A stretch of DNA of 64,000 nucleotides from a virus (IMGVR_UViG_3300044655_003531:1-64000), one strand, 5' to 3'; positions 16,168-62,831 are shown, counted from the first letter of the stretch. The notes: generated from the letters alone by a model not told the origin. Numbers and translations are program-made.

Positions 16168-16485
16168 TTACATATTTTTAATTTCTTTTTCTACCTCCAC
16201 CCAGAATGTTGTTTTGGGATGGTTTGCCCAATAACAGGTTTCCGATTCTTCGTCATCATCTTTCATAAACTGGAATATTTCACCAACAACAGCAAGAGCT
16301 GATTCTTTCCATTTTGGATTTGAATAGAAACTTTTGTATTCACCGGTTGTTACTTCATAAACTTTATTAGTTGAAAATCCAACCGACCCGACTATTTGAA
16401 GTGCCTTTTCTTTTGGTGTAATTGTGATTGGTTTGTATTTAGACATAGAATTTTTTTGAGTTAAAGAGCTTATTTTCAAGCTCAC
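16168..16485 (-). CDS. hypothetical protein (105 aa)
   Basis: ORF. Confidence 0.4.
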   Translation of the reverse strand: MSLKISSLTQKNSMSKYKPITITPKEKALQIVGSVGFSTNKVYEVTTGEYKSFYSNPKWKESALAVVGEIFQFMKDDDEESETCYWANHPKTTFWVEVEKEIKNM

Positions 16486-16865
16486 AGAACAATTTCGAAT
16501 CTTTCCTTCATTTGGAGGATTCTTTCGTCAGGTACTCCGTGGACATTCTTTCCCCCGTGTCTGTTTTCAACAATCAATGAAAAAACGGTGAATCCGTATT
16601 TTTCTGCAAGTTCATAATAGGCCGACATTTCCCATTTTCTGGTGAAAGTGTTGGACACGACTACCTTATCTTCTCCTCTACTCATAGCAGTTTCTGCAGT
16701 TTTTTTGCACCACTCGTGAGCTTCTTTGAGCAGAAGAGGATCAAATTTATATTCGTTGTCTTTCATGAAGAACATATCAGCCTCGACGTGAGAACCCCCG
16801 ATTGCTTTGGCTAGGGTGGATTTTCCAGCCCCTGGGCAGCCTCTTAATAAAAATAAAGATTTCAT
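16482..16865 (-). CDS. pnk: polynucleotide 5'-kinase, stand-alone homolog of the T4 Pnk kinase domain
   Basis: LLRGCPGAGKSTLA P-loop aligns with T4 Pnk ILTIGCPGSGKSTWA. ELAEKYGFTVFSLIV aligns with ETFAKEYGWKVEHKVF. VPDERILQMKERF aligns with VPIDVLRSMYKSM. Confidence 0.75.
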   Translation of the reverse strand: MKSLFLLRGCPGAGKSTLAKAIGGSHVEADMFFMKDNEYKFDPLLLKEAHEWCKKTAETAMSRGEDKVVVSNTFTRKWEMSAYYELAEKYGFTVFSLIVENRHGGKNVHGVPDERILQMKERFEIVL

Positions 16866-16883: not shown

Positions 16884-17339
16884 TTAGAATGCTCCGTAGT
16901 TAACTTGAAAACAGGCAATACCTTGGTCCCTCCACATTTTTACTACTTTATCTCTATCATCATAAACGCACATTATTTCATTTCCCTCCGAGATAAATTT
17001 ATCCATCCATGCCTTCTTCAAGACCTCGTCCGGGGTGTAATCGTGATGTGATCTCATTTGGAGGAAATCAGGCACGATCCCTTGATCACCCAACCACTGC
17101 TCGGTTTCTTTTCTGGAAATCTCATCTCTCCCCGAGAAAATCCCTACCTTTAATCCTGCCTGCTTTAAAAACTGAAAAGTTCGGATAACTGGTAAATTGG
17201 GCTCATCCAATTGGATGTTCTCAGGAGCAAAAAATTCTTTCCAGTTCAATTTGCCAGTTGGCAGAGTAGCCTTGGATCTTCTTTTTTCGATCAGAGCCAG
17301 GGTTCCATCCAGATCGAAAATAACCGATAATTTTTTCAT
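16884..17339 (-). CDS. pnk: polynucleotide 3'-phosphatase, stand-alone homolog of the T4 Pnk HAD phosphatase domain
   Basis: VIFDLDGTLA matches T4 VIFDVDGTLA. GIFSGRDEISRKE matches VVVSGRESGTKE. YDDRDKVVKMWRDQGIACFQVNYGAF matches [26 protein letters not shown]. Encoded upstream of the kinase gene, so the domain order is permuted relative to T4. Confidence 0.85.
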   Translation of the reverse strand: MKKLSVIFDLDGTLALIEKRRSKATLPTGKLNWKEFFAPENIQLDEPNLPVIRTFQFLKQAGLKVGIFSGRDEISRKETEQWLGDQGIVPDFLQMRSHHDYTPDEVLKKAWMDKFISEGNEIMCVYDDRDKVVKMWRDQGIACFQVNYGAF

Positions 17340-18912: not shown

Positions 18913-19553
18913 TTAATTTATTTTCTGAAATGTGGTAACCAGATCTGTTGTAAGTGGAGATGGACTGCACTGAACCTGCTGAACGATCTTAAAACCAAGT
19001 CGATGAAGTTCTTTGTTAAGTTCTTCATGATCTAGATTTGCTCTGCCACCCTTGTTTTTAAAGGACAGATCTTCACCTCCTCCAAACCAGGCGTGATGCA
19101 AAGTTGCCTTTCCCCCTATATTTAAAACTCGATGCATTTCCGGCAGATAATCTCGAATAATATCCCAGTGAATATGAACAAAAGAATCGAAGGAAACAAT
19201 TGCATCGAAGGATGAACTTGGGAAGCAGGTCAAAGATTTTCCATCGTTCATGTGGTAACCGTGGATTCTATCTCCAAATCTATCTAAACAAAATTTAAGA
19301 GGAACAGAGTTGTATTCAACCAAACTCAGGGAAGGACAGTGATTCAAGAAAAATTCTGTGATTCTACCACCTCCGGCGCTATTTCTAAATTTCTATTTCC
19401 CAGATGGGGAACATAAAGAGGATAAATTAGATCAGTCCAAAGCTGCTCAGGGGAAGAAAAATTAGTTGACCAGTATTTAAGATCGTTTTTATTTTCCCAA
19501 ATTGCAGGATCATTCCAGAATTTCTGCTCTTCTAAATTGATATGGACTTGCAC
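18913..19553 (-). pseudogene. class I SAM-dependent methyltransferase interrupted by a single-nucleotide frameshift near 19371-19376
   Basis: Two ORFs (19344..19553 and 18913..19347) join into one MTase if one base is added at CCGGAG, giving NLEIAPGGGRITEFFLNH (motif I), LVEYNS (acidic post-I), FDAIVSFDSFVHI (motif II), VLNIGGKATL (motif III). Confidence 0.55.
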
Positions 19554-19556
19554 TAG

Positions 19557-20627
19557 CTATTCGTTTTTAAGTAAAAATCTGTTGCTGATGACCTTGAAAG
19601 AAATAGTTGTGTCCATGCTGCGAATGACCAATCCTTCCCTCTCGGCATTGGGGTTGAGAACAGATTTCCCTTCAGTCTGCTGTAAGAGTTCTTCGATGGT
19701 GTCTGGTAGAAGAAACTCAGTCCCGAGAATCGGTACGGTCTCAAATCCTAAGTCTTCCATAAGGGAGATAAAAGATCTGAGGTTGAATCTTTCCTGTTTA
19801 TCAATGTCAAAAGCATTGTAGAAACGAACGGTATGACCTTTGAGCTTGTAAGGATTCTTCTGAATTCCTTCCCCGATCAATTCACCCTGAATGCAAAGGT
19901 TAAGACCAGTATCCAGTAGCTTCTTCTTGATGTCCATTTCACGGGCCACTTTCCAGAAAGTGTTTTCCCGCTTAGGCCGTTCGATCCCATCATCGCACAG
20001 TTCCGTTCCTGACACAAATTCACCTGGTTCTGCCAACTCGAGATTTCTAGAGCAAACCCCAAATTCACCGTCTTTGACATAAAATGATGCGGAACTGCCG
20101 TCCAACTTTTCGGTTGCATAGAACTGGTGTTTACTGGTGATCTTCCATTCTTCGTATTCTCTAGACAAATTTTGGACCCTTTCCTCATCGGTTCGGCGGA
20201 GAAAAGAAGGAAAGTAGCCTTTTACTTTGCCAGCCAGTTCGGCGGGAATGGGTGGTTCGTATTTAATCACCCCAAGAATTTCGGTTACATCCATGCCAAG
20301 ATATACATTTCCCCTAACGGGAAGCACATTCAGGGGCATGAGCAATCCCTGGGATAATTCTCCTTTCAAACGGATGGTCTTGAGTCTAAATCCCTCGACA
20401 TCTCCCATTTTCTTGAAAGATGATTTTCGGAGAAACTCAAATTCATCCCGGACCGGAAGAAAAGAATCAATCTCAAAATAAACACAGGTATCTCCAGGTT
20501 TAAACTCTCCTTTCTTGGTTACCACCTGCCACCCATCAACAACAGCCAATTCGATGGCGTCTGCTCCTTTGATGGACTTGATCTCCTTGACCAATCTGAT
20601 GGAAGCTAATTTTCTGGTTTGTTCCAT
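19557..20627 (-). CDS. ATP-dependent RNA ligase-family nucleotidyltransferase (Rnl5/DraRnl-like, N-terminal OB-like domain)
   Basis: Motif I lysine in ATEKLDGSSASFY at about residue 170, preceded by an N-terminal domain as in DraRnl/NgrRnl. EGLVIRSMD resembles motif IV. Immediately upstream of the methyltransferase and the split pnk. Confidence 0.6.
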   Translation of the reverse strand: MEQTRKLASIRLVKEIKSIKGADAIELAVVDGWQVVTKKGEFKPGDTCVYFEIDSFLPVRDEFEFLRKSSFKKMGDVEGFRLKTIRLKGELSQGLLMPLNVLPVRGNVYLGMDVTEILGVIKYEPPIPAELAGKVKGYFPSFLRRTDEERVQNLSREYEEWKITSKHQFYATEKLDGSSASFYVKDGEFGVCSRNLELAEPGEFVSGTELCDDGIERPKRENTFWKVAREMDIKKKLLDTGLNLCIQGELIGEGIQKNPYKLKGHTVRFYNAFDIDKQERFNLRSFISLMEDLGFETVPILGTEFLLPDTIEELLQQTEGKSVLNPNAEREGLVIRSMDTTISFKVISNRFLLKNE

Positions 20628-20910: not shown

Positions 20911-21360
20911 CTAAACGCTATGCGGGATGTTAACTCGAACACAGGATTGAGACTGTCCCTCATTCATCAAAAAATTGTTGATGTATCCCATGATGTTAGC
21001 AGAGCCAATTGGATTGGCCGAATGGGTGTAAACTAAGGGGAAAATAATGCCCGATGATTTTTTCCCTACCCTGCCCTCGAGGGTGTCGTATTTATTCAGG
21101 TAGTAATCGACCAACCATTTTGCACAGTCCATCTCAGTCTTTTCAAGGATGTTTGAGTAGTTGAGCTCGTAATTAGGTTTAACATTGTTGAAATATTCCT
21201 CCATGACAGTATCACCCAGATCGTGGTCCAGTGAAATGATCTCAATGTTTTCTAATCCTATATCAGTGACAACTTTTACAAACTGCTCGTAATTTCGAAC
21301 AACTATCCAGTTTTCATCGTTTGGGGTTCGAATATCATCTAAGTAAATTCTTTTTTTCAT
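20911..21360 (-). CDS. hypothetical protein, paralog A of a duplicated family (149 aa); REC-like acidic motif pattern
   Basis: About 75% aa identity with 25260..25709. Conserved YLDDxRTP, ISLDHDLG, HSANPIGSANIM. Lies immediately downstream of the tRNA gene. Confidence 0.55.
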   Translation of the reverse strand: MKKRIYLDDIRTPNDENWIVVRNYEQFVKVVTDIGLENIEIISLDHDLGDTVMEEYFNNVKPNYELNYSNILEKTEMDCAKWLVDYYLNKYDTLEGRVGKKSSGIIFPLVYTHSANPIGSANIMGYINNFLMNEGQSQSCVRVNIPHSV

Positions 21361-21390: not shown

Positions 21391-21521
21391 TAGTCAGGAC
21401 AGGATTCGAACCTGTACGTGGGTTGAGTCCTTTGAGAATAACACCTTTCGGTCTCTTGAGTCTCTCCTGCAACATCCCCCACAGCTTTAGCTTACTTGCT
21501 TCTACCATTCCGCCACCTGAC
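21391..21521 (-). tRNA. atypical long tRNA gene (about 131 nt); canonical acceptor, Leu-like D arm and T arm; anticodon not assigned
   Basis: Minus-strand read AGTCAGG-TG-GCGGAATGGTAGA...ACAGGTTCGAATCCTGT-CCTGACT-A. 7-bp acceptor stem, GGTTCGAATCC T-loop, D-arm close to bacterial tRNA-Leu (GGCGGAATTGGTAGAC). About 45 nt more than a type II tRNA, so it contains an intron-like or extended insertion. Confidence 0.55.
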
Positions 21522-21602
21522 TATAATTCACCTGCCTTTTATCTCCTCATATATTCCGCCCAAAATTATTATTATAATTATAAGTAAAAACGTCTGCATA
21601 TT

Positions 21603-25259: not shown

Positions 25260-25709
25260 TCAAACAAAGTGTGGAATGTTCACACGAACACAAGATTGAG
25301 GTTGACCCTCATTCATCCAAAAATTATTAATGTATCCCATAATGTTGGCAGATCCGATTGGATTTGCCGAATGGGTATACACTTGTGGAAAAACGATACC
25401 AGATGATTTTTTTTCTGACCTACTTTTCTGAGTAAGGTAATTGTCAAGATAGTGATTGACCAACCACTTAGCACAATCCATTCCCGTCTTTTCAAGGATG
25501 TTATTGTAATCCAATTTGTAGTTTGGACTCACGTTATTGAAATATTCATTCATCGCTGTATCACCCAAATCGTGATCCAAGGAAATTACATCTATGTTTT
25601 CTAATCCTATATTTGTTACCGCTTCCACGAACTCGTCATAATTCCTCACAACCACCCAAATATCTTCTTTGGGGGTTCTAACATCATCTAAGTAAATTTG
25701 TTTTTTCAT
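25260..25709 (-). CDS. hypothetical protein, paralog B of the duplicated family (149 aa)
   Basis: About 75% aa and 80% nt identity with 20911..21360. Confidence 0.55.
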   Translation of the reverse strand: MKKQIYLDDVRTPKEDIWVVVRNYDEFVEAVTNIGLENIDVISLDHDLGDTAMNEYFNNVSPNYKLDYNNILEKTGMDCAKWLVNHYLDNYLTQKSRSEKKSSGIVFPQVYTHSANPIGSANIMGYINNFWMNEGQPQSCVRVNIPHFV

Positions 25710-26631: not shown

Positions 26632-27351
26632 TTATGACATATTACCAACTTTAAGTTCACCATCATAAATCAAATATTGCTTTGATGGTAAAGCATCTAT
26701 CATATAATATCTACCACCCATGTGTTTATTCATACCATTCAAATCTATTTCTTTAATTTGAGTATGTCCAAATATTTGAATAAAACGTTTTTTGATTGCG
26801 TTTTCATTTCTTCGTTTGTTAGACATTAACAATGAAGTAGGTCTTATCCACACAGGAGTTTGAGTTACATTATCCCCATAAGCATTAAATCCATTAAAAG
26901 CAAAAGCATGAGGCCTGTGTTTAAATAGCTCATTGATTTCATCAACCAAAGTATCTACATTACAACGACCAAAAGTTTCTACAACCCAATAATGGCTTAC
27001 TCCTGCGTGAGTGCAAAGAAAATCATCAAATGAGTATGCCATTTGCAACAGGTCCATATTCTCTGATAAAACATGGCTGATATCAAACTGAAGAGCGGGT
27101 TGAAAACCTGAATAAGTTTCGTTGATATGCATATAGTGTAGGTCATGATTACCTGTCAATAGAATCACTTCCTTGTCGGAGTTTCGTTTAAACTCACATA
27201 TCTCCTTAAAGTTATGTATTTGGTCAACACCGGGTATATCAAAAGAATCAAAGTAATCTCCAACAAAGATTATTCTATCTGCGTTTTCTTTTGCTACAAT
27301 GTCCTTCCAAATTGGACGGCCGTGGATATCTCCAATGAATATTGTTTTCAT
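26632..27351 (-). CDS. Ser/Thr-type metallophosphoesterase (lambda-PPase/ApaH-like)
   Basis: IFIGDIHGR, FVGDYFD, LLTGNHD, GH motifs in canonical order. Confidence 0.7.
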   Translation of the reverse strand: MKTIFIGDIHGRPIWKDIVAKENADRIIFVGDYFDSFDIPGVDQIHNFKEICEFKRNSDKEVILLTGNHDLHYMHINETYSGFQPALQFDISHVLSENMDLLQMAYSFDDFLCTHAGVSHYWVVETFGRCNVDTLVDEINELFKHRPHAFAFNGFNAYGDNVTQTPVWIRPTSLLMSNKRRNENAIKKRFIQIFGHTQIKEIDLNGMNKHMGGRYYMIDALPSKQYLIYDGELKVGNMS

Positions 27352-28839: not shown

Positions 28840-29700
28840 TTATTTTCCTAAATTATACATCATATTAGTTCCACTACCCAATTGAGTAGTGGGTAAAACT
28901 CCATTCCATTTATTGATATACTCAAGTTGTAATAGTAATGGTGTTAAGGTTTGTTGTTTCATCCTGTTAGCTTCTGCTTCAGCTTTGGCTGATGTTAGCA
29001 TTGCTTGAGCATTACCTTCAGCTTGTGCGATTTTGATTTTGGCTTCAGCTTCAGCTTGCTTTACCCTATTTTCGGCTGTAAGTGCGGATTGAACTGCGTT
29101 ATTTTTAGCTTCAATGGCTTTCTTAAATGTTTCAGGATATACAAGATTTGATGTAAATTGAGCCAACATGAATCCTTCAGGTAGTAAGTGTGATTCTAAT
29201 ACCTTTCTAACTTTCACTTCAAATTGTTCACGATTTGAAATAAGTTCATCGGCAGTATATGAGTTAGCAACCACACGAAACGCATCATATACCGCAGTTT
29301 TTAAGAAACCTGATTCAATCTCATCCAATGTAACTCGGTATTTACTAAAAATATAGGGTACTCGTTCTCGTTTAACTGAATAGTTTAATAATGGTGAAAC
29401 GTGAAATTCTGAACCATCTTTTGAGTTTACCACAAATGATTCATCGGGATTATCTTCGCCATTGTTTTTATATTCTTTGTGCTGAACAAATGTTGGGAAC
29501 TCAATGATTTTTGTGGTAAATGGATTGTAAAATACCCAACCAGTTACCTCAGTAATATCATCTACACCTTTACCATCTCCATAGAGATTTACTTTAACAC
29601 CAACGTGACCCGCATCAATGCGTTCACAACTTGATAGACTGAAAATGATTAATCCTAATGCTAGCAATGCTACTGATACAATTTTAAAAGGGTTTTCCAT
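28840..29700 (-). CDS. SPFH/band-7 (stomatin/prohibitin/HflK/C-like) membrane protein
   Basis: N-terminal TM helix, SPFH core, C-terminal Ala/Glu-rich coiled coil QAEAEAKIKIAQAEGNAQAMLTSAKAEAEANRMKQ. Confidence 0.7.
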   Translation of the reverse strand: MENPFKIVSVALLALGLIIFSLSSCERIDAGHVGVKVNLYGDGKGVDDITEVTGWVFYNPFTTKIIEFPTFVQHKEYKNNGEDNPDESFVVNSKDGSEFHVSPLLNYSVKRERVPYIFSKYRVTLDEIESGFLKTAVYDAFRVVANSYTADELISNREQFEVKVRKVLESHLLPEGFMLAQFTSNLVYPETFKKAIEAKNNAVQSALTAENRVKQAEAEAKIKIAQAEGNAQAMLTSAKAEAEANRMKQQTLTPLLLQLEYINKWNGVLPTTQLGSGTNMMYNLGK

Positions 29701-29714
29701 AGTTTTTTGTTTTT

Positions 29715-29921
29715 TTAGTTTTGTTTTGTTGTGGTTTTTGGTTTAAAAATGAATTGTAAGGTTAAAAATAAAAAATAAATACCAATAAATAAGGTTATTA
29801 CTCCGAAGAAAAAAGCAATGGTAGATGGCATATTCATTAACGAGAAACTAAACTTCATTAGTTCTGAAAATGCTAATCCAAGTAGGATGCAGGAGAATGT
29901 TTTAATTAAAATGTTTTTCAT
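29715..29921 (-). CDS. small two-TM membrane protein upstream of SPFH gene
   Basis: Two hydrophobic helices. Overlaps the HAD gene end. Confidence 0.4.
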   Translation of the reverse strand: MKNILIKTFSCILLGLAFSELMKFSFSLMNMPSTIAFFFGVITLFIGIYFLFLTLQFIFKPKTTTKQN

Positions 29922-30549
29922 AGTTTATATTTTGTAAAGTTCTATTCAATTTTCCATAGTTTGTTTTACCATCAAATGCTCTACCAATACGATACAAATG
30001 ATTAGGTGATAATCCAAAGTAACCATCGCAATGATAAAATTTATCCATTTGTTCTGGAAGCATATCTGAGTCATCATCTAAAATTGCATAATCCTCAACT
30101 TCAGGTCTTTTATCTAGCCATTCCTTTATTTCTTCTCCTCTCATACCAAACCCACCTCCTGTGATACCAACAAAAGTTCCCTCATTAAATCCAAAATGAA
30201 CCAATGCGCGTTCCCACCACTGGGGAATTACGTTTTTCTCCGTTCCAAAATGGCGTTTCCAAACAGATGAAATACAAATTTTAGTTCCAGTCCTATTACA
30301 AAAATCAGAAAGCCACTGCCATTTTTGGGGGCAAGTCTCTTCAATCAACCTTTTAAGTTGGTATTCATAAGTGTAATGGCTATCGGGTGTTTTGTAATTT
30401 GCTAAACTCACAGGTTTTGATTTAATACCTAAAAACTTTCTGATTAGGTAGTAGTAAGTCCTGGGTTTCAACCACCTTTTTTTGTGTCGGTTCTCGTAAA
30501 AAATATGGGAGTTCATAACTCCATCAATATCTAAAAATATAACTTTCAT
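29902..30549 (-). CDS. HAD-superfamily phosphatase-like protein
   Basis: N-terminal FLDIDGVMNS (DxDGV motif I). Confidence 0.5.
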   Translation of the reverse strand: MKVIFLDIDGVMNSHIFYENRHKKRWLKPRTYYYLIRKFLGIKSKPVSLANYKTPDSHYTYEYQLKRLIEETCPQKWQWLSDFCNRTGTKICISSVWKRHFGTEKNVIPQWWERALVHFGFNEGTFVGITGGGFGMRGEEIKEWLDKRPEVEDYAILDDDSDMLPEQMDKFYHCDGYFGLSPNHLYRIGRAFDGKTNYGKLNRTLQNINYEKHFN

Positions 30550-30558
30550 ATCAAAGGT

Positions 30559-31275
30559 TTATTTTGTAAGTAATTCTTTAAATCTTTTTCTTAACATTCT
30601 AACATATACATCATTGGATAGTCCGTAATTTCCGATAGCCCACATATCATTGTATTCAATAACTACGTTCTGACCCCCACTCAAAACACCTATATCAATT
30701 GTGTAGGCCGATGGAAAAGTATTTCTATTGTTTTGGATTATTTTTTCTAAATACGAACTATCAATCGAAACATAAAGATTACCAGAGTAGTTTGCTAGAT
30801 ATTCAATGCGGTGATCGTTGATATAGCATCTCCATTCACTCTCAATTGGTTGATCAAAAACATCATAAACCATAACTCGTGTTTCTTCAGGAACATTAGA
30901 AATTGATGTGTTCTGCATTTGATCAATCACAAAACCAGTGAATAATTTTATGTCAAATGGTTTTATGAAAAACTTTTGACCTAGTTGTGCTAATCTCTTA
31001 ATTTCCCCTAAGGTTTGTATGCTGTGTTTTCTATCGGAATTCATAGGTAGTCTAGGATCTTCAACACCAGCGATTTGAAACACAACTCTCATGAACTCAA
31101 CAGAACCAACAAATAAATTGTTAGATGTTACTAATTTATTAAACTTGCCGGAAATTAAATCATCATAAGTAATAAGTCTAAAGTCCTGTCCAGTATCCAT
31201 AGCACCATACATAGCACAAGAAACATCAAAGTGATGTGGTAACTCTCGGTTGCTGTCTTTTTGTAAATAAATCAT
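30559..31275 (-). CDS. hypothetical protein, possible ATP-grasp fold
   Basis: C-terminal ...VVIEYNDMWAIGNYG resembles the ATP-grasp E-x-N signature. Weak. Confidence 0.3.
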   Translation of the reverse strand: MIYLQKDSNRELPHHFDVSCAMYGAMDTGQDFRLITYDDLISGKFNKLVTSNNLFVGSVEFMRVVFQIAGVEDPRLPMNSDRKHSIQTLGEIKRLAQLGQKFFIKPFDIKLFTGFVIDQMQNTSISNVPEETRVMVYDVFDQPIESEWRCYINDHRIEYLANYSGNLYVSIDSSYLEKIIQNNRNTFPSAYTIDIGVLSGGQNVVIEYNDMWAIGNYGLSNDVYVRMLRKRFKELLTK

Positions 31276-31371
31276 AATGGTGCAAATATATACATTTTGT
31301 AACTAAAAACAAAATTTTTTAGAAAAATTACCAACCTCAACTATTTTGAATATCTAAGAGTATAACTTTCA

Positions 31372-32448
31372 TTAAATTTTATAAAATTGGGGTTTTATTA
31401 TTTTCCAAATTAATGAGGAGTATTCCTTACGATCGTACATTTTAAATAAAAGGGAAGGATTTTTGTATTTTTTTGCTTCTTCGGCAAAACTAGCTCTCCA
31501 CTTGAAATCTTTTATGCTCTTGAGGGTGTCGAAGATAGCCAAATACTCCTTCTCTACCTCCTGGTATTGACTTATCAGCTCGTTGGCATATCCTGTCACC
31601 TTTCCATAAAACTCATCGGGGGTGTCGACAAGGATGGCTGACATGTCACCTCCGGTAGACAAGACCTCCCAGATCGAAGTGGAAGTAACATTTGTCATTA
31701 TTCTGTGCAACCTGAGATACTCCTCAAATTTAATTTTCATCCGAAAGTTACCAGGTTGAAATCTAAGAACGAAACCCTCCTTGTTAACATCGTTCTGTGC
31801 CTTCAAACTACGGTATAACTGATCGGAAAAGTTAAAATGCTGCTTTGTTTGGGTGATGTCTTTATCAGAGACACCGTTGAACTTAAAGACATCACAGGCC
31901 ATAGACCAATGTAATTCTTCTTCGTTGGTTTGTTTGTAAAAATTATTGGGGACCGCAGATAAAAATATGACTTTTTCTTCCCCGTAATTTACAACGATAC
32001 GATTTTCCGGGTAGATGATCTCAACCAAGTACGCGTATTCTTTTATCCAACTATCCAACTTGTATTTGGATTGAACCATCTCTAATCCCTTTATTGCCTG
32101 GTCTGAGGTAAAAGAACCCCGGGTAGCCATAATCCATTCACCCTCGTAGTAAAACAGTATGCCTAAAGAGCCATCCGCCTTTTCCTGCACATACACACAG
32201 TCTCCTTGGGTTGGAATTTGTCCTTTGTTCACAATTTCTTCGTAGTTGAAAAACTTTGGAAAGGGTTTAACAAGGATCCCGCCGGTAACATCATCGGTAA
32301 TAAGACCTCTACACATAAGGGTCACATCGTCCCATAATCCATCGTATTGAACCTTTTCGCTGTAGTTCCAAATTGTCAGCGGAAAGCGAGGATGGGACTG
32401 GGAGTGGAGCAGGCCCCTTTCCTTATAATCTTCTAGTACGTTTCTCAT
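31372..32448 (-). CDS. rnlA: RNA ligase 1 (T4 Rnl1 family)
   Basis: LMCRGLIT/LECRGIMF, FPKFFNYEE/MEKFFNLNE, motif I EKADGSLGILFY/KEDGSLVSTY, VEIIYPENRIVVNY/FEFVAPTNRIVLAY all align with T4 gp63. Confidence 0.8.
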   Translation of the reverse strand: MRNVLEDYKERGLLHSQSHPRFPLTIWNYSEKVQYDGLWDDVTLMCRGLITDDVTGGILVKPFPKFFNYEEIVNKGQIPTQGDCVYVQEKADGSLGILFYYEGEWIMATRGSFTSDQAIKGLEMVQSKYKLDSWIKEYAYLVEIIYPENRIVVNYGEEKVIFLSAVPNNFYKQTNEEELHWSMACDVFKFNGVSDKDITQTKQHFNFSDQLYRSLKAQNDVNKEGFVLRFQPGNFRMKIKFEEYLRLHRIMTNVTSTSIWEVLSTGGDMSAILVDTPDEFYGKVTGYANELISQYQEVEKEYLAIFDTLKSIKDFKWRASFAEEAKKYKNPSLLFKMYDRKEYSSLIWKIIKPQFYKI

Positions 32449-32497
32449 TCCCCAAATATAAGAATAAATTCTAAAATTAATTCACAAAAAATCGAAC

Positions 32498-32725
32498 CTA
32501 TCCATTAAAAAAAGTTTCCCTCTGAATCTTCTCCACAAAAGACAGAAAATATTCAGAAGGCAAAACTTTTTCCAAATCAGACACAAGAACCACATCCCGG
32601 CCAGAAACCGATTGGATTTGAAGAGATTCCCCGCATTTCTCTAACAACTGGCCGTCAAAGAAATTTGAAACCAATCCCACGGGAACTAACTCAGGAATGT
32701 TCAGTGCTTCCATTAATTTGGTCAT
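32498..32725 (-). CDS. hypothetical protein (75 aa)
   Basis: ORF. Confidence 0.35.
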   Translation of the reverse strand: MTKLMEALNIPELVPVGLVSNFFDGQLLEKCGESLQIQSVSGRDVVLVSDLEKVLPSEYFLSFVEKIQRETFFNG

Positions 32726-33347
32726 TAATTCTTTTTATTTTATTCATCTTATGAATTTCTAGATATTTTGCCAAATCCTCATTACTCATCCACTTATTGA
32801 AATCCGGTTCAATTTTTTTGATTTGTTCGGTTAAATCTTTTTTGTAACCTTTTCGATAGTAATAATCTTCAATGGAATCAGCAAGGTCCTGAATGTATTG
32901 AGGTGCAGCAACTGAGATTCTTAAATCATACCATTCCCACTTTGTTTTATAATCTACAAATGTAATTCCTTTGGTTAGTTTTCTATGTAAATTATGTAGT
33001 GCCCTATTACGAACCCTTACAATAGATTTATCGTTACCAAACACATCGAGAAATCTAAGAAACCAACGAGGACACCACCAAGGTTTTGCTTCATAGTCCA
33101 TAGCCAAAACTAATGGGACCATAGCTTTATTACAGTTATTGTAATCAGGTACAGAACCTAAATACCCATACTTTTCAGAAAAATCTTTAGGAAAGAAAAT
33201 ATAACGAATATCATCCCACTCCAAATCACGAGTATGTACTATACCTTTCTTTCTACCCTTCCAAAATAGGAGAGATTGTCCAAAGTCTTTAGCTTTTGCA
33301 CTAAATGGGCGATTGTCCTTAAAAGGACCAAATTTACTTTTTTTCAT
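32691..33347 (-). CDS. hypothetical protein (218 aa)
   Basis: ORF. Confidence 0.45.
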   Translation of the reverse strand: MKKSKFGPFKDNRPFSAKAKDFGQSLLFWKGRKKGIVHTRDLEWDDIRYIFFPKDFSEKYGYLGSVPDYNNCNKAMVPLVLAMDYEAKPWWCPRWFLRFLDVFGNDKSIVRVRNRALHNLHRKLTKGITFVDYKTKWEWYDLRISVAAPQYIQDLADSIEDYYYRKGYKKDLTEQIKKIEPDFNKWMSNEDLAKYLEIHKMNKIKRINDQINGSTEHS

Positions 33348-34193: not shown

Positions 34194-34260
34194 GGAGAAT
34201 TTGGTTTAGACCCCAAATATAGAAAAATTCCTCCAATAGTTGATACTTCGAATAAAAAAA

Positions 34261-39167: not shown

Positions 39168-40220
39168 TTATTCTAATTCCTCGAGAGAGTTGGAGAGATA
39201 TTTGGTGATTTTATAAGGATCCGCATTTGATCCTGGTCTCCTGTCTTCAAGATAACCCAACCACTTATCAGAGGTAGAAATGGGTATTCTGATTGATGCT
39301 CCTCTATCACTTACACCCCAACTGAATTTCGAAATGCTTTGGGTTTCGTGCTTGCCGGTAAGTCTCAGATGATTGTCCGATCCATAGAGGGAAATAGCAA
39401 CATCGTGGGTTTTTTCCAGCACTTGACAAATGCTGTTAAAAAATTCTTCCCCTCCTGTTTCTCTCATTCTATTATTTGAAAAATTGGTGTGCATTCCTGA
39501 TCCGTTCCAATCTTCCTCTGCTCCCATGGGCTTGGGGTGAAAGTCAACTTTGATCTGGTAATTTTCTGCAATTCTCATGAGCAAAAATCTAGATATCCAA
39601 AGATCATCTGCGGCCGTCTGTTCTCCCTGGCCAAAAACCTGATATTCCCACTGACCGAGCATCACTTCGGCATTGGTGCCTGTGATCTGAATGCCACAAG
39701 AAAGACAGGCATCCAAATGTTCCTCTGAAATATTTCTGCCAGCGGAATAAGGATGACCGACTGAACAATAATACTTGCCCTGAGACTCGGGTGGGTTGAA
39801 ATTTTCAAATCCTACCGGCCGATTACTATTTTTATTGAACCACCTGAGCACATACTCTTGCTCAAACCCAAACCAAAGAGCATGAGAATCCTTTCCGATC
39901 AAGGCTCTAGTATTGGAAGAATGTGGGGTGCGGTCTGGATTTAGAACCTCACACATTACGAGATAGCAAAAGCCCATTCTGAGAGGATCTGCATAAACCC
40001 TCACTGGTTTTAGAATCAAATCTGAGAAATTACCTTCAGCCTGCCGGGTGGAACTTCCATCAAAAGACCATTCTGGAAGTTCTTCTGGTCTAGGTTTTGC
40101 GTGTTGGGGCGAAAGAGTGTTCAGATTTGACGGGGTATAATCGAAAATCTTTACTTTTGATCTCAAATTTGGTTCGGGTTGATATCCATCTAACCAAACA
40201 TACTCCAATTTTAATTTCAT
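39168..40220 (-). CDS. glnII: glutamine synthetase type II (eukaryote-like GSII)
   Basis: ELPEWSFDGSSTRQAEGNFSD, WFGFEQEY, GTNAEVMLGQWEYQ, NGSGMHTNFS, SIRIP, EDRRPGSNADPY all match GSII blocks. Length about 350 aa, typical of GSII. Confidence 0.85.
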   Translation of the reverse strand: MKLKLEYVWLDGYQPEPNLRSKVKIFDYTPSNLNTLSPQHAKPRPEELPEWSFDGSSTRQAEGNFSDLILKPVRVYADPLRMGFCYLVMCEVLNPDRTPHSSNTRALIGKDSHALWFGFEQEYVLRWFNKNSNRPVGFENFNPPESQGKYYCSVGHPYSAGRNISEEHLDACLSCGIQITGTNAEVMLGQWEYQVFGQGEQTAADDLWISRFLLMRIAENYQIKVDFHPKPMGAEEDWNGSGMHTNFSNNRMRETGGEEFFNSICQVLEKTHDVAISLYGSDNHLRLTGKHETQSISKFSWGVSDRGASIRIPISTSDKWLGYLEDRRPGSNADPYKITKYLSNSLEELE

Positions 40221-50910: not shown

Positions 50911-51498
50911 TTAATTTGCTATTTGAAATTTTTTAGGATCTGTAAAGGCCGGCTTACGATTTGGAAAATAATAAGTTATTTTTTCTTTCTTGTCGATGGT
51001 TAGGATTTTCCAAAAACCAGTTGGAACTGTTGCTCCCGTACTTAATTTTTCAGGAGACCCTGAAAAATCTAGTTTAATGAGAACGTCGACCTGATGAAAT
51101 TCTGCTACCAATTGTCTCTCTTTGGCCTCTAAAATTCTCCAAACCCCCCGATTTAAATCTTGGTGTTGGAGAGCACAGTTGAGGTAGGAGAAAGTTCTTA
51201 CTAGTGACTCCTTAGAACAACTGAAAGTAGCCGCCGGGGCTAGGTGCCCTTTGTCCCAGATATTCTTTTCGTAATCCGCATGATCAGAGGTAATGATGGA
51301 ATCAACCCGGTAAAAATCCAATCCTTGTCTGCTCTCCTTTGCCGCAGTACATCTGACCGAGTATGATAATTCTAGAGGTTGCTGATATATTTCAGAGTAA
51401 ACGAGAGAGTATTCCCCCGCATTAACCGCTACAGATGCTCTTTGTGAATATGTACAAAAAGGAAAAAAAAGGACAAAAAGTAAAATTCTTGATAGCAT
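50911..51498 (-). CDS. secreted non-specific DNA/RNA endonuclease (Serratia NucA/Endonuclease_NS family)
   Basis: Signal peptide MLSRILLFVLFFPFCTYS. Active-site block DKGHLAPAATF...N (DRGH-type motif). Confidence 0.65.
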   Translation of the reverse strand: MLSRILLFVLFFPFCTYSQRASVAVNAGEYSLVYSEIYQQPLELSYSVRCTAAKESRQGLDFYRVDSIITSDHADYEKNIWDKGHLAPAATFSCSKESLVRTFSYLNCALQHQDLNRGVWRILEAKERQLVAEFHQVDVLIKLDFSGSPEKLSTGATVPTGFWKILTIDKKEKITYYFPNRKPAFTDPKKFQIAN

Positions 51499-55340: not shown

Positions 55341-57806
55341 ATGAAAAGAATATCCAAGAATTACAAAAAATTAAGATTATTCGAATCTGAGGAAGAACTA
55401 AAAGTCCCAGATGATGAAAAGCTTTGGCAAGCATACGGTGAGGATATGACCAAAGCAGCGAAGGAGGGAGAGATAAATGAAGTAATTGGAAGGGATAAGG
55501 AATTGGAACAGTTGCTTCGCATTCTGGCCAGGAAAACCAAGGATAATCCAGTTTTGGTTGGAGAGCCGGGCGTTGGAAAAACCGCTATTGTGGATAAGCT
55601 TGCTCTTTTAATGGCAAGCGATAAATGTCCCGGTTTTTTAAAGGGGAAAAAGTTAATAGATTTGACCTGGGCATTTAAAAAAATAGTTAATGGAGGTTAT
55701 TTACCCCTTTTGGCCCGTGAAATTGAGGAAGATAACTTGATTATTTTTGTGGACGAACTCCATTCTCTACCTAAAGCAAGTTACGATGAACTCAAACCCT
55801 TTTTGGCTAAAGCCAAACTTCATATGATCGGTGGTTCCACTTATAGTGAATATGGTCAAACTATTGAGAAAGACGGAGCCATGGAAAGAAGATTTCAACC
55901 GATCAAAGTTGAAGAGCCTACCTACGAGGAATGCATGGAAATACTTAGAGAAATCCAAGAAAAATATGGGGATTGGCATCATGTTAATTATTCACCAGAA
56001 GCCTTAGAATCCTTTTATAAACTATCTAAGCAGTATATTAAAGACCGATTTTTGCCAGATAAAGCTATCGACTTGATGGACGAATCCGGTGCACGAATTC
56101 GCATTAAAAATGCCCCGGATGCGGAGGTTGCGAATCTAGAAAAGAAAAATTTAGAACTCCTAGACCGGATCAGGCAAAAGACGGCAGAAGGTGACTATGA
56201 TGCTGCTGCAGATCTATCAGATGAAAAAGAAAAGATAGAGAGTCGGCTTGAAAAAATGGCTGCGAAAGGTCAAATGGGACCTAAAATTACCGTCACTAAA
56301 GAAATGGTGGAAAAACTAGTGGCAGATAAAACAGGGATTCCTGTTGAAACGATGAAAAAGGGCAGTAAGGCAATCCTAAAAGGAATGTCAAGCAGACTGA
56401 AATCAAAAGTTATCGGTCAAGACGAGGCGGTAGAGACCGTTGTTAGAACAATTAAAAGAAACAGGTCGGGTCTTAAAGACCCTAATAGACCTGAAGGGGT
56501 ATTTTTATTCGTGGGCCCTACTGGGACAGGTAAAACCTATTTGGTGAAAAAATTGGCTGAGGAGCTTTTTGGATCTAGGGAATCTAAATTGATTAGGATT
56601 GATATGAATGAATATTCGGAGGCTCATACAGGATCTAAATTGTTTGGATCACCTCCCGGTTATGTAGGTTATTCGGAAGGAGGCAAACTAACAGAGCAAG
56701 TCAGAAGAAACCCTTATTCGGTAATTTTGCTAGATGAGATCGAAAAAGCAAACCCTCAAGTTATACAATCCCTGCTAGGGGTGCTAGAAGATGGAAGGAT
56801 GACGGACGGGCAAGGGAGAACGGTTGACTTTACAAACTGTGTTATTATCATGACTTCTAATGTGGGATCAAAAACAGGATCTAAAAAGGTTAAATCAAAG
56901 GAACCCAGAAAAGCGATTGGTTTTTTGGTTAAAGATGAACCAGAAGATGAAACAAAACAGACTGGAGCAGAATCACCTGAGGAAATCAAAGCAAGAGTCG
57001 ATGCAGCGATCAAAAAAGAGTTTTCGCCCGAATTTATTAATAGAATAGATGATATTGTTATTTTTCAGTCAATAGACCAAGAATCAATAAAAAAGATTGC
57101 AGAAAAAGAGCTCGAGAAGGTGGCAGATAGGATTAAAAATACCCAAGACATTAATCTGACTTGGGGAACTTCGGTTTACAAGTTGTTACTTAAACACGGA
57201 TTTGACCCTGAATATGGGGCTAGACCCCTTAGAAGAGCAGTGGAGAAATATATCAAGGACCCTCTAGCCAATTTTATAATCGAGGAAGAGATTGAGGAAG
57301 GATCCAACCTCAAAATTGATTACGATTCCTTGGCAGATGAGTTAGTCATTAACGGAAAGAAAATTTCAGAGTTATCTGAATCTAGACTCAGAAAAATCCA
57401 CAAAAGTTTTTCTTTGTTCGAATCTACAAGTCCTAGAAGAATCAATAGTTTTTCAGAATTTAGCGATAGATTAGACGAGGCGGAAACAGAAAGGGAGAAA
57501 GAAGAGGAAAAGGGAAAACCAGCTCCTTTGCCTAAACCACTGCCTAAACCACTGCCTAAACCTACGCCTAAACCACAGCCTAAGCCTACTCCTAAACCTA
57601 CACCCAGTGAGGATGAAGATGAGGATGAGGATTTTGATCCAGATGCAGAACCGGTCCGAAGAATAACTCCTCATCCGTCAATTGCACCACGAATTAAAGT
57701 TCCTTCTCATGCTCCTGGACCCCAAGCAATAAAGAAAAAAGCTTCAGAGATGGATGTGATCAAAAGGTACATATCAGAACTCAAAAAAAGAAAACCATTT
57801 TACTAA
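55341..57806 (+). CDS. ClpA/ClpB-family AAA+ ATPase lacking the N-domain, with C-terminal PKP-repeat and acidic extension
   Basis: NBD1 VLVGEPGVGKTAIV, NBD2 FLFVGPTGTGKTYL plus DEIEKA Walker B and sensor blocks. C-terminal PLPKPLPKPLPKPTPKPQPKPTPKPTP followed by SEDEDEDEDFDPD. Confidence 0.75.
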   Translation: MKRISKNYKKLRLFESEEELKVPDDEKLWQAYGEDMTKAAKEGEINEVIGRDKELEQLLRILARKTKDNPVLVGEPGVGKTAIVDKLALLMASDKCPGFLKGKKLIDLTWAFKKIVNGGYLPLLAREIEEDNLIIFVDELHSLPKASYDELKPFLAKAKLHMIGGSTYSEYGQTIEKDGAMERRFQPIKVEEPTYEECMEILREIQEKYGDWHHVNYSPEALESFYKLSKQYIKDRFLPDKAIDLMDESGARIRIKNAPDAEVANLEKKNLELLDRIRQKTAEGDYDAAADLSDEKEKIESRLEKMAAKGQMGPKITVTKEMVEKLVADKTGIPVETMKKGSKAILKGMSSRLKSKVIGQDEAVETVVRTIKRNRSGLKDPNRPEGVFLFVGPTGTGKTYLVKKLAEELFGSRESKLIRIDMNEYSEAHTGSKLFGSPPGYVGYSEGGKLTEQVRRNPYSVILLDEIEKANPQVIQSLLGVLEDGRMTDGQGRTVDFTNCVIIMTSNVGSKTGSKKVKSKEPRKAIGFLVKDEPEDETKQTGAESPEEIKARVDAAIKKEFSPEFINRIDDIVIFQSIDQESIKKIAEKELEKVADRIKNTQDINLTWGTSVYKLLLKHGFDPEYGARPLRRAVEKYIKDPLANFIIEEEIEEGSNLKIDYDSLADELVINGKKISELSESRLRKIHKSFSLFESTSPRRINSFSEFSDRLDEAETEREKEEEKGKPAPLPKPLPKPLPKPTPKPQPKPTPKPTPSEDEDEDEDFDPDAEPVRRITPHPSIAPRIKVPSHAPGPQAIKKKASEMDVIKRYISELKKRKPFY

Positions 57807-61364: not shown

Positions 61365-62831
61365 TTAAGAAAATTCAATGCCAAGATGGGGTTTGCCTTT
61401 GGCTTTCAAAGGTCTATAACCTTTAATCTCCTCGGTGACGACAAAGGCTTTGTGTGGATTAACCATTACCCCCATTTTTTTCATCAGGCCTCTGCTGGCC
61501 AGGAATGGAGTGCTTTTTTGGACCCTATCCGTGGGAGCAACTTTTACATCCGAGATCTTTACCCCGTTGAGCATGACGTCTAGCAGAATAATAGGTCTCT
61601 TGCTTTTATCTCTACCCACTTCCGTATCGGTGTAACCAACAATGTCGCTGGTAAATTCTTTGCCCCCGATTTTCCACTTCAGCTGATTTCCTACTTCTTT
61701 CGTTTCATCTGCCTGAATCGATGAGGCACTGGAGCCATTTCCAGTGTCGAATTTGGCAACAAGCTTTCCTATCTCTGGGATCTCAATCGTCTCTAAATAA
61801 CCAACCTCCATCCTAGAGTAGATCCAATTCTTTTTATTGATGACATAATCGATGACGTCCCCCACAATGGGTCTTCCTATGGCCTGAGAGATGCCTTCTG
61901 TTCCAGGCGAGGAATTAACCTCCAGAATATACGGCTCTTTCGTTTTTTTATCGATCATGATGTCTACCCCGCACCAATGGCTACCGACAGAATTAGCAGC
62001 CCGACAGGCTAAATCGGCAATTTTATCATCTATATTATAGGCAGAAACTTTACCTCCTAGAGAGTAATTGGTTCTGAAATCCTTTTTTACTGCTTCTCTT
62101 TTCATGGATCCAAGAATAATGCAATTGCTTGGTTTGGTGATTAAAGGGTCAAATCTTTTGAGGATGACCTGAATTCTCAAATCAAAGTTCGAGTCAATTT
62201 TTTCCTGAATAAGAATTTCCTTTTCGGGATCCAATTTGGCAATCGTTTGATACACAGATTTCAGAGAGGCGTAAGAATCAACAATTGAAACCCCAATGCC
62301 CTGAGTGCCCGAGAGCAACTTCATTACTACAGGAAACTGACCACCTATTTGTTCCAAGGCAGTATCCAGATTTTCTTCCCCGTTCACCAGGGCATATCTG
62401 GGAACTGGAAGTTCATTCTCTTCCAACACCTTTGAGGTTAAGAATTTACTCTCACACACCTCGATAGATTCCAGAGAATTGACACAGAAATAACGGGATG
62501 CTTCTAATTCTCTCATGATCTGTTTGGTCAGAGAATTGGAAATAACCCCTCGTCTAGGAATAATAGCGGTCACATCAGGATTTATGAAAATTTCTCTTTT
62601 GTCCCCTGAGGTCTCCCGGAGTAGATGTCCATTATAGATTTTTTCAAGCTGCACATTGTTGATGTTGACAACGTAACAAGGGATACCCCTTTTTTGGCAT
62701 TCCTCCAGGAAGGATTTGGACGTCGGACTGGGTTTTACCGTGCCTGAGAGGATCAGGAGTTCAACTCCTTTTTCTTCTTTAGATTCGTTCAAGAAGTTGC
62801 AAAAATTTAACACGGCGGGTAGTGAATTCAT
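61365..62831 (-). CDS. RimK-like ATP-grasp ligase fused to C-terminal retropepsin-like (zinc-protease-like DUF785) domain
   Basis: ATP-grasp blocks FPVVMKLLSGTQGIGVSIV and PYILEVNSSPG. C-terminal about 150 aa resembles the RimK-associated protease-like domain. Confidence 0.6.
   Translation of the reverse strand: MNSLPAVLNFCNFLNESKEEKGVELLILSGTVKPSPTSKSFLEECQKRGIPCYVVNINNVQLEKIYNGHLLRETSGDKREIFINPDVTAIIPRRGVISNSLTKQIMRELEASRYFCVNSLESIEVCESKFLTSKVLEENELPVPRYALVNGEENLDTALEQIGGQFPVVMKLLSGTQGIGVSIVDSYASLKSVYQTIAKLDPEKEILIQEKIDSNFDLRIQVILKRFDPLITKPSNCIILGSMKREAVKKDFRTNYSLGGKVSAYNIDDKIADLACRAANSVGSHWCGVDIMIDKKTKEPYILEVNSSPGTEGISQAIGRPIVGDVIDYVINKKNWIYSRMEVGYLETIEIPEIGKLVAKFDTGNGSSASSIQADETKEVGNQLKWKIGGKEFTSDIVGYTDTEVGRDKSKRPIILLDVMLNGVKISDVKVAPTDRVQKSTPFLASRGLMKKMGVMVNPHKAFVVTEEIKGYRPLKAKGKPHLGIEFS

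Follow-up and report, generated by a model that had tools for sequence, protein, structure and literature searches.

An accessory cassette of an Rnl1-family RNA ligase, an R2K ATP-grasp enzyme and a HAD_SAK_2 phosphatase within a predicted RNA-repair island of an uncultivated jumbo phage

Related systems and the locus under study

RNA repair by phages is the classic counter to host defences that cleave tRNA, the known number of which keeps growing; in phage T4, repair of tRNA by Pnkp and the RNA ligase Rnl1 counters the anticodon nuclease PrrC. Here we describe 64 kilobases (kb) of viral DNA (IMGVR_UViG_3300044655_003531:1-64000; "the window", in which coordinates are counted from the first letter) where genes for an Rnl1-family ligase, an ATP-grasp enzyme of the R2K clade and a HAD_SAK_2 phosphatase lie side by side. 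The source of the window is an uncultivated jumbo phage. The R2K protein is also carried, identical in sequence, by contigs of up to 267 kb, among deposited phages the HAD protein is matched best by a metagenomic megaphage of 735 kb, and the sole match in a DNA similarity search against sequenced phages was a 130-nucleotide (nt) piece of the SPFH gene, shared at 75% with crAss-like phages. All genes of this part of the window are on the minus strand, and the three open reading frames (ORFs) named above lie exactly where an initial annotation of the sequence had placed them.

The window resembles the T4 system in its phage setting, in an Rnl1-family ligase with the T4 catalytic residues, and in an island that holds both a polynucleotide kinase (PNK)-like kinase and a HAD_PNKP phosphatase. 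It differs from T4 in that i) kinase and phosphatase are separate small proteins encoded 12-15 kb from Rnl1; ii) the ligase shares only ~25-37% identity with Rnl1 of cultured phages and falls short of the T4 RnlA equivalog cut-off; and iii) HAD_SAK_2, two cyclic-phosphate-processing receiver (cREC) genes, a metallophosphoesterase, an Rnl5-type ligase and R2K are added. In bacteria, Pnkp/Hen1 and Pnkp1-Rnl-Hen1 complexes follow a logic of kinase, phosphoesterase, ligase and methyltransferase; the Rnl5 sub-cluster of the window (cREC, ligase, methyltransferase, HAD_PNKP and kinase) together with its phosphoesterase is alike, whereas the window proteins are separate and small and the ligase is of another family.

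For jumbo phages, Iyer, Anantharaman, Krishnan, Burroughs and Aravind (2021; PMC7824862) described a toolkit of Rnl1/Rnl2 ligases, kinases, PNK-HAD phosphatases, standalone "Swiss-army-knife" HADs, calcineurin-like phosphatases and ligase-linked cREC domains, with several ligases and backups per genome. The window shares with these sets Rnl1 plus another ligase family, a standalone HAD, calcineurin-like phosphatases, ligase-linked cREC and redundant layers, and as a system its island is of this already known kind of phage tRNA/RNA repair. On the other hand, R2K lies here between ligase and HAD in one mobile block, whereas the 2021 survey files R2K under host-protein modification rather than RNA repair and leaves SPFH/Band-7, transfer-messenger RNA (tmRNA) and SmpB unmentioned.

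The R2K clade itself (RimK, CDC123 and R2K.2/R2K.3) was described by Burroughs, Zhang and Aravind (2015; PMC4431377) as having two lysines conserved within its RAGNYA domain and, at the end, a metal-binding ExN motif. The window protein is alike in its R2K_2/R2K_3 membership, both lysines and ExN, a pre-ATP-grasp N-terminal domain, a standalone length of ~240 amino acids (aa) and its occurrence in a phage; it differs in context, as the neighbours given in PMC4431377 are GNAT, ADP-ribosylglycohydrolase and type VI secretion system toxins, and include neither RNA ligases nor phosphatases. For protein targets, a peptide or amino-acid ligase activity is a prediction of that study, no R2K.2/3 member having been characterised, and the R2K-clade literature foresees peptide tagging of proteins in phage-host conflict, with RNA ligases unmentioned (PMC4431377; PMC7824862). 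Finally, bacterial SPFH genes occur in SPFH-NfeD operons and, as a parallel to the window, embedded in the rtc locus of Pseudomonas aeruginosa (PMC13086221). Likeness to the window lies in a small membrane-protein gene before SPFH and in RNA-repair genes recurrently beside SPFH; the window differs in that the partner is a 68-aa peptide with two transmembrane (2-TM) segments and without an NfeD match, and in that its SPFH protein is phage-encoded and a predicted lipoprotein.

The cassette and its surrounding island

The three genes form a discrete cassette, which is new here. It occupies 2.86 kb (29934-32793, minus strand) and contains the divergent 3' tail of a 218-aa gene, a 75-aa ORF, Rnl1, R2K and HAD_SAK_2. 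Its borders were given by L119 and L120, the closest relatives found through the SPFH protein (SPFH 93% identical, flanks 85-89% identical at the nucleotide level), in which DNA matching window 33348-32794 is followed by ~52 nt and then by DNA matching 29933-28840; because the flanks adjoin in these relatives, window 29934-32793 is a 2.86-kb indel. In L120, the homologue of the 218-aa gene (219 aa) ends 3 nt before the 2-TM gene, with SPFH next, and in L173 the same slot carries other cargo, namely a 174-aa gene and an NT5C-like HAD. Thus Rnl1-R2K-HAD, absent as a unit in L119/L120 and replaced by other cargo in L173, acts like a single accessory unit that occupies a variable slot, next to a resident 2-TM/SPFH pair; the synteny comparison called for by the initial annotation returned the three genes as present or absent together. 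The left flank of the cassette, the conserved 218-aa protein (32691-33347, minus strand), has homologues at related loci and matched nothing in Pfam or PHROG; its homologue stands directly upstream of R2K in L025/L092 and of the 2-TM/SPFH pair in L119/L120, and it recurs beside that pair in L173 and L126 as well.

Taken together with the island described below, these findings lead us to favour, with moderate confidence, the reading that the block (75-aa ORF, Rnl1, R2K and HAD_SAK_2) is an accessory cassette within a phage RNA-repair island directed against cleavage by host RNases. An RNA-repair role has good support in the case of Rnl1 and reasonable support in that of HAD_SAK_2.

The Rnl1-family ligase (358 aa; 31372-32448, minus strand) bears out the family assignment made at first. 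It passed the gathering score of Pfam RNA_lig_T4_1 (PF09511; 1.4e-17, 64.7 vs 28.3), was covered over its full length by PHROG 562 (the T4 gp63/Rnl1 family; 5.6e-63), and matched the T4 Rnl1 crystal structures 2C5U, 5TT6 and 9DO4 at 1e-10. By the structure-chain alignment, in chain numbering, ten T4 residues are identical in the window protein (R54 as R47, K75 as K65, F77 as F67, K99 as K90, G102 as G93, E159 as E143, E227 as E224, G228 as G225, K240 as K238 and K242 as K240), and T4 K119 is R110, a conservative swap; R54, K75, F77 and K119 of T4 are those that we take, from T4 mutagenesis work, to be the Rnl1-specific essential residues. Counted over the nine residues essential in T4, eight are identical and K119 is the exception. 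The nucleotidyltransferase motifs I (KxDG; K90-A-D-G93), III (E143), IV (E224-G225) and V (K238-x-K240) are all kept, and K90, within EKADGS of motif I, is the predicted adenylylated lysine. Motif I had been quoted as KEDGSLV, which is T4's own sequence; the window has EKADGSLG. In Rnl1 a C-terminal helical domain confers tRNA specificity; for the window protein, the alignments to PHROG 562 and TIGR02308 extend to residues 350-357, while the direct T4 alignment ends at residue 288. Since the catalytic residues are kept, whereas identity to any cultured-phage Rnl1 is about 25-37% (37% at most) and the score lies below the equivalog cut-off, the ligase appears to be a catalytically intact yet divergent family member and not a T4 RnlA equivalog.

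The middle gene encodes a 238-aa R2K-clade ATP-grasp enzyme (30559-31275, minus strand). The initial description of it as ATP-grasp-like with a C-terminal E-x-N signature was confirmed by three results: i) matches to Pfam R2K_2 (PF18299; 1.7e-27, 96.5 bits) and R2K_3 (PF14243; 1.1e-16, 62 bits), against gathering scores of ~26; ii) an alignment of 21 homologues (52-71% identity) in which K105, K110, E147, R149, D194 and E207-x-N209 (the ExN motif, here E207-Y-N209) are invariant, as is an N-terminal P-H-H-F-D motif; and iii) an AlphaFold (AF2) model, built from the same alignment, with a predicted local distance difference test (pLDDT) value of 91.5. The nearest solved folds of this model in Foldseek were Ddl, LysX/ArgX, RimK and the peptide macrocyclase PsnB (E ~1e-7, probability 1.00), with alignments that span nearly the whole length, ATP-grasp fold and pre-ATP-grasp N-terminal domain included. 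Since these are its nearest folds, the modelled R2K protein is best read as an ATP-grasp ligase of the classical carboxylate-amine kind and not as one that joins polynucleotides. The family comprises 1,592 clusters at 50% identity (E <= 0.001), its members being almost always standalone proteins of ~240 aa; no domain fusion was seen among the homologues, the longer proteins carrying the R2K domain alone. R2K proteins of cultured jumbo phages are <=29% identical and their context is uninformative, and PDB sequence searches with R2K and with the HAD protein gave nothing useful. The same phage encodes a second ATP-grasp protein, RimK-like and 488 aa long (61365-62831, minus strand; PF08443, 7e-33), which may bear on the amide-ligase chemistry of the phage.

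The third gene (29902-30549, minus strand) encodes a 215-aa protein with a ~70-aa helical insert after motif I. The prediction of a HAD phosphatase held: the protein matches Pfam HAD_SAK_2 ("HAD domain in Swiss Army Knife RNA repair proteins") at 2.3e-19, it has the HAD Rossmannoid fold as well as the profile membership, and all four catalytic motifs (D7-x-D9, S95, R137 at the Lys/Arg position, and D158-D159) are invariant in a 22-sequence alignment that takes in three much shorter, divergent subfamilies. As to whether it groups with the polynucleotide 3'-phosphatases, its identity as a HAD protein stood, while neither fold nor profile comparison separated any substrate class: Foldseek of the HAD model gave nothing below E = 0.04, and hhalign of the HAD_SAK_2 profile against the HAD_PNKP of the window and against an NT5C-like HAD gave uninformative probabilities of 4% and 13%. 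The opposite outcome envisaged at first, a middle gene without an ATP-grasp fold next to a HAD of the 5'-nucleotidase kind, did not materialise, since the middle gene has an ATP-grasp fold and no 5'-nucleotidase family was matched by the HAD protein. Three relatives of 65-67% identity, on the large-phage contigs L112, L113 and L114, are all within RNA-repair islands, which comprise Rnl1, AAA_33, Rnl5, an RNase_T-like protein, two HAD_SAK_2 genes and cREC in L112; Rnl1, Metallophos, an RNase_T-like protein, HAD_SAK_2 and cREC in L113; and two HAD_SAK_2 genes, PolyA_pol, cREC and Band_7 in L114.

These genes had been assigned to one operon. That holds for R2K, HAD, 2-TM and SPFH, which are tightly packed (gaps of 9, -20 and 14 nt), and is doubtful for Rnl1, which is 96 nt away from R2K with a promoter-like element, TTTG-N19-TATATTTG (31283-31313, minus strand), in the gap. 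The octamer TATATTTG has five minus-strand copies in the window (at 34221, 32460, 31290, 25249 and 18022), all five of them 12-28 nt upstream of gene starts, including that of Rnl1 (the copy at 32460). We take the element to resemble the Bacteroidota -33/-7 promoter type; its promoter role is inferred from this likeness, because of which Rnl1 probably has its own promoter and is transcribed separately from R2K-HAD. Scans for sigma-70-type promoters and terminators gave fewer or no more matches than shuffled sequence. The likeness of TATATTTG to the Bacteroidota -7 element also hints at a Bacteroidota host, with which a low GC content (32-40%) and the lipoprotein signals are compatible.

The cassette lies at one end of a larger set of genes for RNA ends. 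On the same strand are encoded a 239-aa calcineurin-type metallophosphoesterase (26632-27351; PF00149, 9e-10), which has a further match in the phosphoesterase portion of PHROG 8238, a multidomain "RNA ligase" family; a cREC protein (25260-25709; PF20274, 7.7e-20) and a second one (20911-21360; PF20274, 5.3e-18) directly upstream of Rnl5; an Rnl5/DraRnl-type RNA ligase (19557-20627) with an N-terminal PHA02142 OB domain (PF21189, 1.9e-38) and an RNA_ligase domain (PF09414, 1.7e-24), at 188 bits above the cut-off of 151 of TIGR02306 (the DRB0094 family); a small S-adenosylmethionine-methyltransferase-like protein downstream of it (18913-19347; Methyltransf_11, 3.3e-6), for which a role in RNA end protection is speculation; a HAD_PNKP-type polynucleotide 3'-phosphatase (16884-17339; PF25109, 2.6e-30); and a PNK-like P-loop kinase of the AAA_33 type (16482-16865; PF13671, 7.7e-14). 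Thus 5' kinase, 3' phosphatase and ligase occur together (AAA_33, HAD_PNKP, HAD_SAK_2, Rnl1 and Rnl5) on one strand between 16.4 and 32.5 kb. Because of the kinase, phosphatases, cREC proteins, phosphoesterase and ligases listed, this ~16-kb region is, as read from its domains, an RNA end-healing and sealing island predicted to cover all activities for breaks bearing a 2',3'-cyclic phosphate plus a 5'-OH, in more than one version each. The second, Rnl5-type ligase cassette reported near 19.5 kb was therefore real, and the idea of layered RNA repair fits, the window adding to it the PNK-like kinase, HAD_PNKP, two cREC genes, the phosphoesterase and the methyltransferase. PADLOC defence models gave no meaningful matches.

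Elsewhere, contig L004 (IMGVR_UViG_3300025161_000004, 246 kb) has 17 tRNA genes in two arrays flanked by Rnl1, metallophosphoesterase, cREC and a 43-residue R2K fragment, a repair island wrapped round a tRNA array. A homologue of the window metallophosphoesterase, L026:2632-4299 (= L107), reaches 555 aa through a large internal insertion that, from its sequence, looks like an intein with a homing-endonuclease-like segment.

R2K, RNA repair and the competing readings

The place of R2K in such islands was judged from 95 distinct R2K loci on viral and metagenome contigs, whose neighbours within 3.5 kb were clustered without prior labels. HAD_SAK_2 was found at six loci, always downstream and from at least three divergent subfamilies (23-35% identity), the gap being 9-11 nt in two lineages with R2K proteins 56% identical and the arrangement loose in four more. 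A second metallophosphoesterase family was near R2K at six loci (usually 340-400 nt downstream), a PolyA_pol/CCA-adding-type nucleotidyltransferase at five (~400 nt upstream), Rnl1 at three, the window-type phosphoesterase at three and cREC at two; L021 has the order Pnkp / HNH-Rnl2 / R2K / small ORF / Metallophos, and tRNA genes, mostly in arrays, are within 3.5 kb of R2K in 11 loci. A specific RNA-end-processing gene was present within that distance at 19 of 95 R2K loci vs 2 of 116 controls, an imperfect set of phage loci around an unrelated element (odds ratio 14, Fisher p = 8.5e-6, iterated profiles). Thus R2K, an amide ligase, recurs as an unexplained companion of RNA-repair and tRNA genes in phages, which is the second new element here.

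Whether R2K takes part in repair is a separate matter. These neighbourhood statistics make it conceivable, at rather long odds, that R2K is a true accessory step of phage tRNA/RNA repair. Under that reading its ATP-dependent amino-acid or peptide ligation would, for example and quite tentatively, restore or protect a tRNA or translation factor after nuclease attack, or block the nuclease; and R2K would, with equal reserve, have been recruited repeatedly beside Rnl1, HNH-Rnl2, HAD_SAK_2, CCA-adding enzymes and tRNA arrays.

Of the alternatives, a coincidental neighbourhood survives best: Rnl1 would be a real repair ligase, and R2K, with or without the HAD, an unrelated host-takeover enzyme that modifies host proteins, for instance ribosomal proteins or translation factors, in the manner of RimK/CDC123 and came by chance into the same plastic accessory region. 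We regard this as a minority possibility to be taken seriously. It agrees with the literature on R2K, which predicts peptide tagging of proteins without a link to RNA ligases (PMC4431377; PMC7824862), with the amino-acid and peptide ligases nearest to R2K in fold, and with the apparent promoter-like element of Rnl1. Against coincidence stand i) the enrichment of R2K beside RNA-end-processing genes relative to controls; ii) the pairing of R2K with HAD_SAK_2 of different subfamilies at 9-11 nt in two lineages; iii) L021, where R2K is linked to a different ligase family and Pnkp; and iv) the presence or absence of Rnl1-R2K-HAD as one block.

Several observations weigh against our favoured reading, and the first three of them speak for coincidence at the same time. 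About 80% of R2K loci are without an RNA-repair neighbour, and related islands do without R2K, which is found in none of the three HAD_SAK_2 islands of L112, L113 and L114 and in none of the 29 SPFH lineages considered below, bearing out the early remark that Rnl1 seldom has an ATP-grasp protein as its neighbour. In five loci the gene directly downstream of R2K encodes an M42 glutamyl aminopeptidase, which suggests a chemistry of amino acids or peptides that has nothing to do with RNA ends, and a cyanobacterial chromosomal copy of R2K sits among housekeeping genes. The enrichment is biased, as the hidden Markov models drew part of their training from the R2K and SPFH loci and none from the controls, and as the loci lack phylogenetic independence; moreover, adjacency is weak evidence of shared function, because accessory genes of jumbo phages cluster in plastic regions. 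Finally, the window Rnl1 scored 60.7 bits against NCBIfam TIGR02308 (T4 RnlA), where the equivalog cut-off is 242. The M42 loci (L023, L082, L094, L096 and L109; e.g., L094:3769-4848, PF05343 at 5.9e-70) are in their own right a possible clue to glutamate or peptide handling by R2K.

A less probable alternative, which we consider unlikely, makes R2K and HAD_SAK_2 a small-molecule module, ligation being followed by dephosphorylation, that would produce or break down a metabolite derived from a nucleotide or an amino acid, for instance against host signalling nucleotides, and independent of RNA sealing. Modules of ATP-grasp, HAD and phosphoribosyltransferase (PRTase) with a biosynthetic role are known from Ter-associated systems and count in its favour. 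A Ter/HAD link is mentioned in PMC7824862. In the same direction point the R2K-HAD pairing, which is close in two lineages and looser in another four, the cap-like helical insert of the window HAD subfamily, which is typical of HADs with small substrates, and the canonical HAD_PNKP elsewhere in the same island, by which 3'-phosphatase duty is already covered in this phage. However, neither a PRTase nor any other biosynthetic partner is found in the cassette, HAD_SAK_2 relatives that lack R2K have ligase, kinase and cREC genes around them, and the 137-aa HAD paired with R2K in L009 is without the cap insert.

Similarly improbable in our view is that SPFH and its 2-TM partner form a membrane scaffold of RNA repair, as proposed for Band-7 in bacterial RtcB loci, so that Rnl1-R2K-HAD-2TM-SPFH would be one machine. 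SPFH scaffolds for RNA repair, like the Swiss-army-knife concept, were reportedly put forward by Burroughs and Aravind (2016). The pair reported immediately downstream of the HAD gene is indeed there: a 68-aa protein with two hydrophobic segments (29715-29921, minus strand), the resident SPFH partner, overlaps the HAD stop by 20 nt, and is followed by a 286-aa SPFH/Band-7 protein (28840-29700, minus strand; PF01145, 7.8e-20), which matches PHROG 200 "lipoprotein" at 2.4e-68. The partner has no NfeD match, only a sub-threshold one to DUF7333, and is too short for the NfeD OB domain. Consistent with a scaffold are the close packing of HAD, 2-TM and SPFH, the presence of an SPFH gene in the rtc locus of P. 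aeruginosa (PMC13086221), and the neighbours of SPFH: with lineages taken as clusters at 90% identity, and Metallophos, kinase, Rnl1, Rnl5, HAD, cREC and CCA enzyme counted, an RNA-end-processing gene is within 1.5 kb in 18 of 29 SPFH lineages and within 6 kb in 19 of 29. Yet most of this neighbour signal is supplied by a generic metallophosphoesterase family, and the pair is unchanged where the cassette is missing. Moreover, the SPFH protein begins with a signal peptide whose lipobox (L-S-S-C25) immediately precedes the SPFH domain, and the lipobox cysteine before ERIDAGH is kept in ~25 of 29 lineages; because of these features the SPFH domain should lie outside the cytoplasm, away from RNA. 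Thus the predicted lipoprotein is unlikely to take part in RNA-repair chemistry or to serve as its scaffold, and the pair is probably a conserved neighbour. SPFH is far better conserved than the repair enzymes (68-93% identity over 80 loci), a small hydrophobic ORF is directly upstream of it in most of these 80 related loci, and gene order around it varies (e.g., kinase-2TM-SPFH-Rnl1, or Metallophos-kinase-Rnl5...2TM-SPFH-Metallophos).

That the Rnl1 homologue serves mainly to attach tail fibres, as T4 gp63 does in its second activity, and not as an RNA-repair enzyme is hardly credible. For it speaks the label of PHROG 562, "RNA ligase and tail fiber protein attachment catalyst"; against it, all ligase catalytic residues are kept and the gene is among RNA-end-processing genes, not structural genes.

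A tRNA-like RNA, the proposed course of repair and its meaning

The tRNA gene that the initial annotation counted with the two ligase cassettes did not hold up: ARAGORN, with and without intron mode, found no tRNA in the window, and the cloverleaf lacks a 17-nt anticodon arm. At 21391-21522 (minus strand) there is instead a non-canonical tRNA-like RNA of 132 nt (Rfam tRNA, 31.5 bits vs a gathering score of 29), whose acceptor, D and T arms fit the Rfam alignment, with 65 nt where the 17-nt anticodon arm is expected. It belongs to a widespread phage RNA family with ends invariant at the nucleotide level and a hypervariable centre: the 5' end is AGUCAGGUGGCGGAAUNGG (acceptor and tRNA-Leu-type D arm), the 3' end ACAGGUUCRAAUCCUGUCCUGA (T arm and acceptor), and the centre 42-100 nt, hairpin-forming. 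At least 120 exact pattern matches were obtained in IMG/VR, with further copies such as L148:10688-10817, L140:782-887, L160:10465-10607 and the loci from L197 onwards. Among the matches listed, ARAGORN missed 98 of 112 unique copies, its intron mode giving scattered, inconsistent anticodons, and ordinary tRNA genes adjoin 52 of 120 copies. We considered this RNA as an SPFH-associated tRNA-like partner and rejected the idea, as SPFH is present at 4 of 120 loci among the matches listed and repair genes are very few.

The window also encodes a phage tmRNA (54797-55236, minus strand; Rfam RF00023, 72 bits, full length). SmpB is encoded near the RNA-repair islands of the related phages L112 and L113, and there is none among the window ORFs scanned. 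Further genes of the window are those for a ClpB/Hsp104-like double AAA+ protein of 821 aa (55341-57806, plus strand), a glutamine-synthetase-like protein of 350 aa (39168-40220, minus strand) and a DNA/RNA non-specific endonuclease (50911-51498, minus strand).

If, as we favour, the cassette belongs to a repair island against host RNases, family knowledge suggests the following course. The cREC proteins and/or the metallophosphoesterase would open the cyclic phosphate; the HAD phosphatases would strip the remaining phosphate, HAD_PNKP being joined by HAD_SAK_2 as a second specificity or backup; and the AAA_33 kinase would phosphorylate the 5' end. Rnl1 would then seal breaks in tRNA loops via a lysyl-AMP intermediate at K90, and Rnl5 would seal nicks in duplex RNA. 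R2K would most likely couple an amino acid or peptide to some part of the translation machinery, be it a protein or possibly a tRNA; it would not be a step in sealing but an added, optional layer that accompanies RNA-repair genes; the SPFH pair would be a neighbour and not a catalytic partner.

The window thus presents an unusually complete, multi-layered repair toolkit in an uncultivated giant phage, and the presence or absence of the Rnl1-R2K-HAD cassette between near-identical flanks is a clean natural experiment. If R2K is unrelated to repair, the finding, though well documented, is one more ordinary case of a class already known. If R2K does work with the repair enzymes, RNA repair would gain a new chemistry, amide ligation, and a function would be at hand for a large orphan family of ~1,600 clusters, kin of RimK and of the eukaryotic translation factor CDC123.

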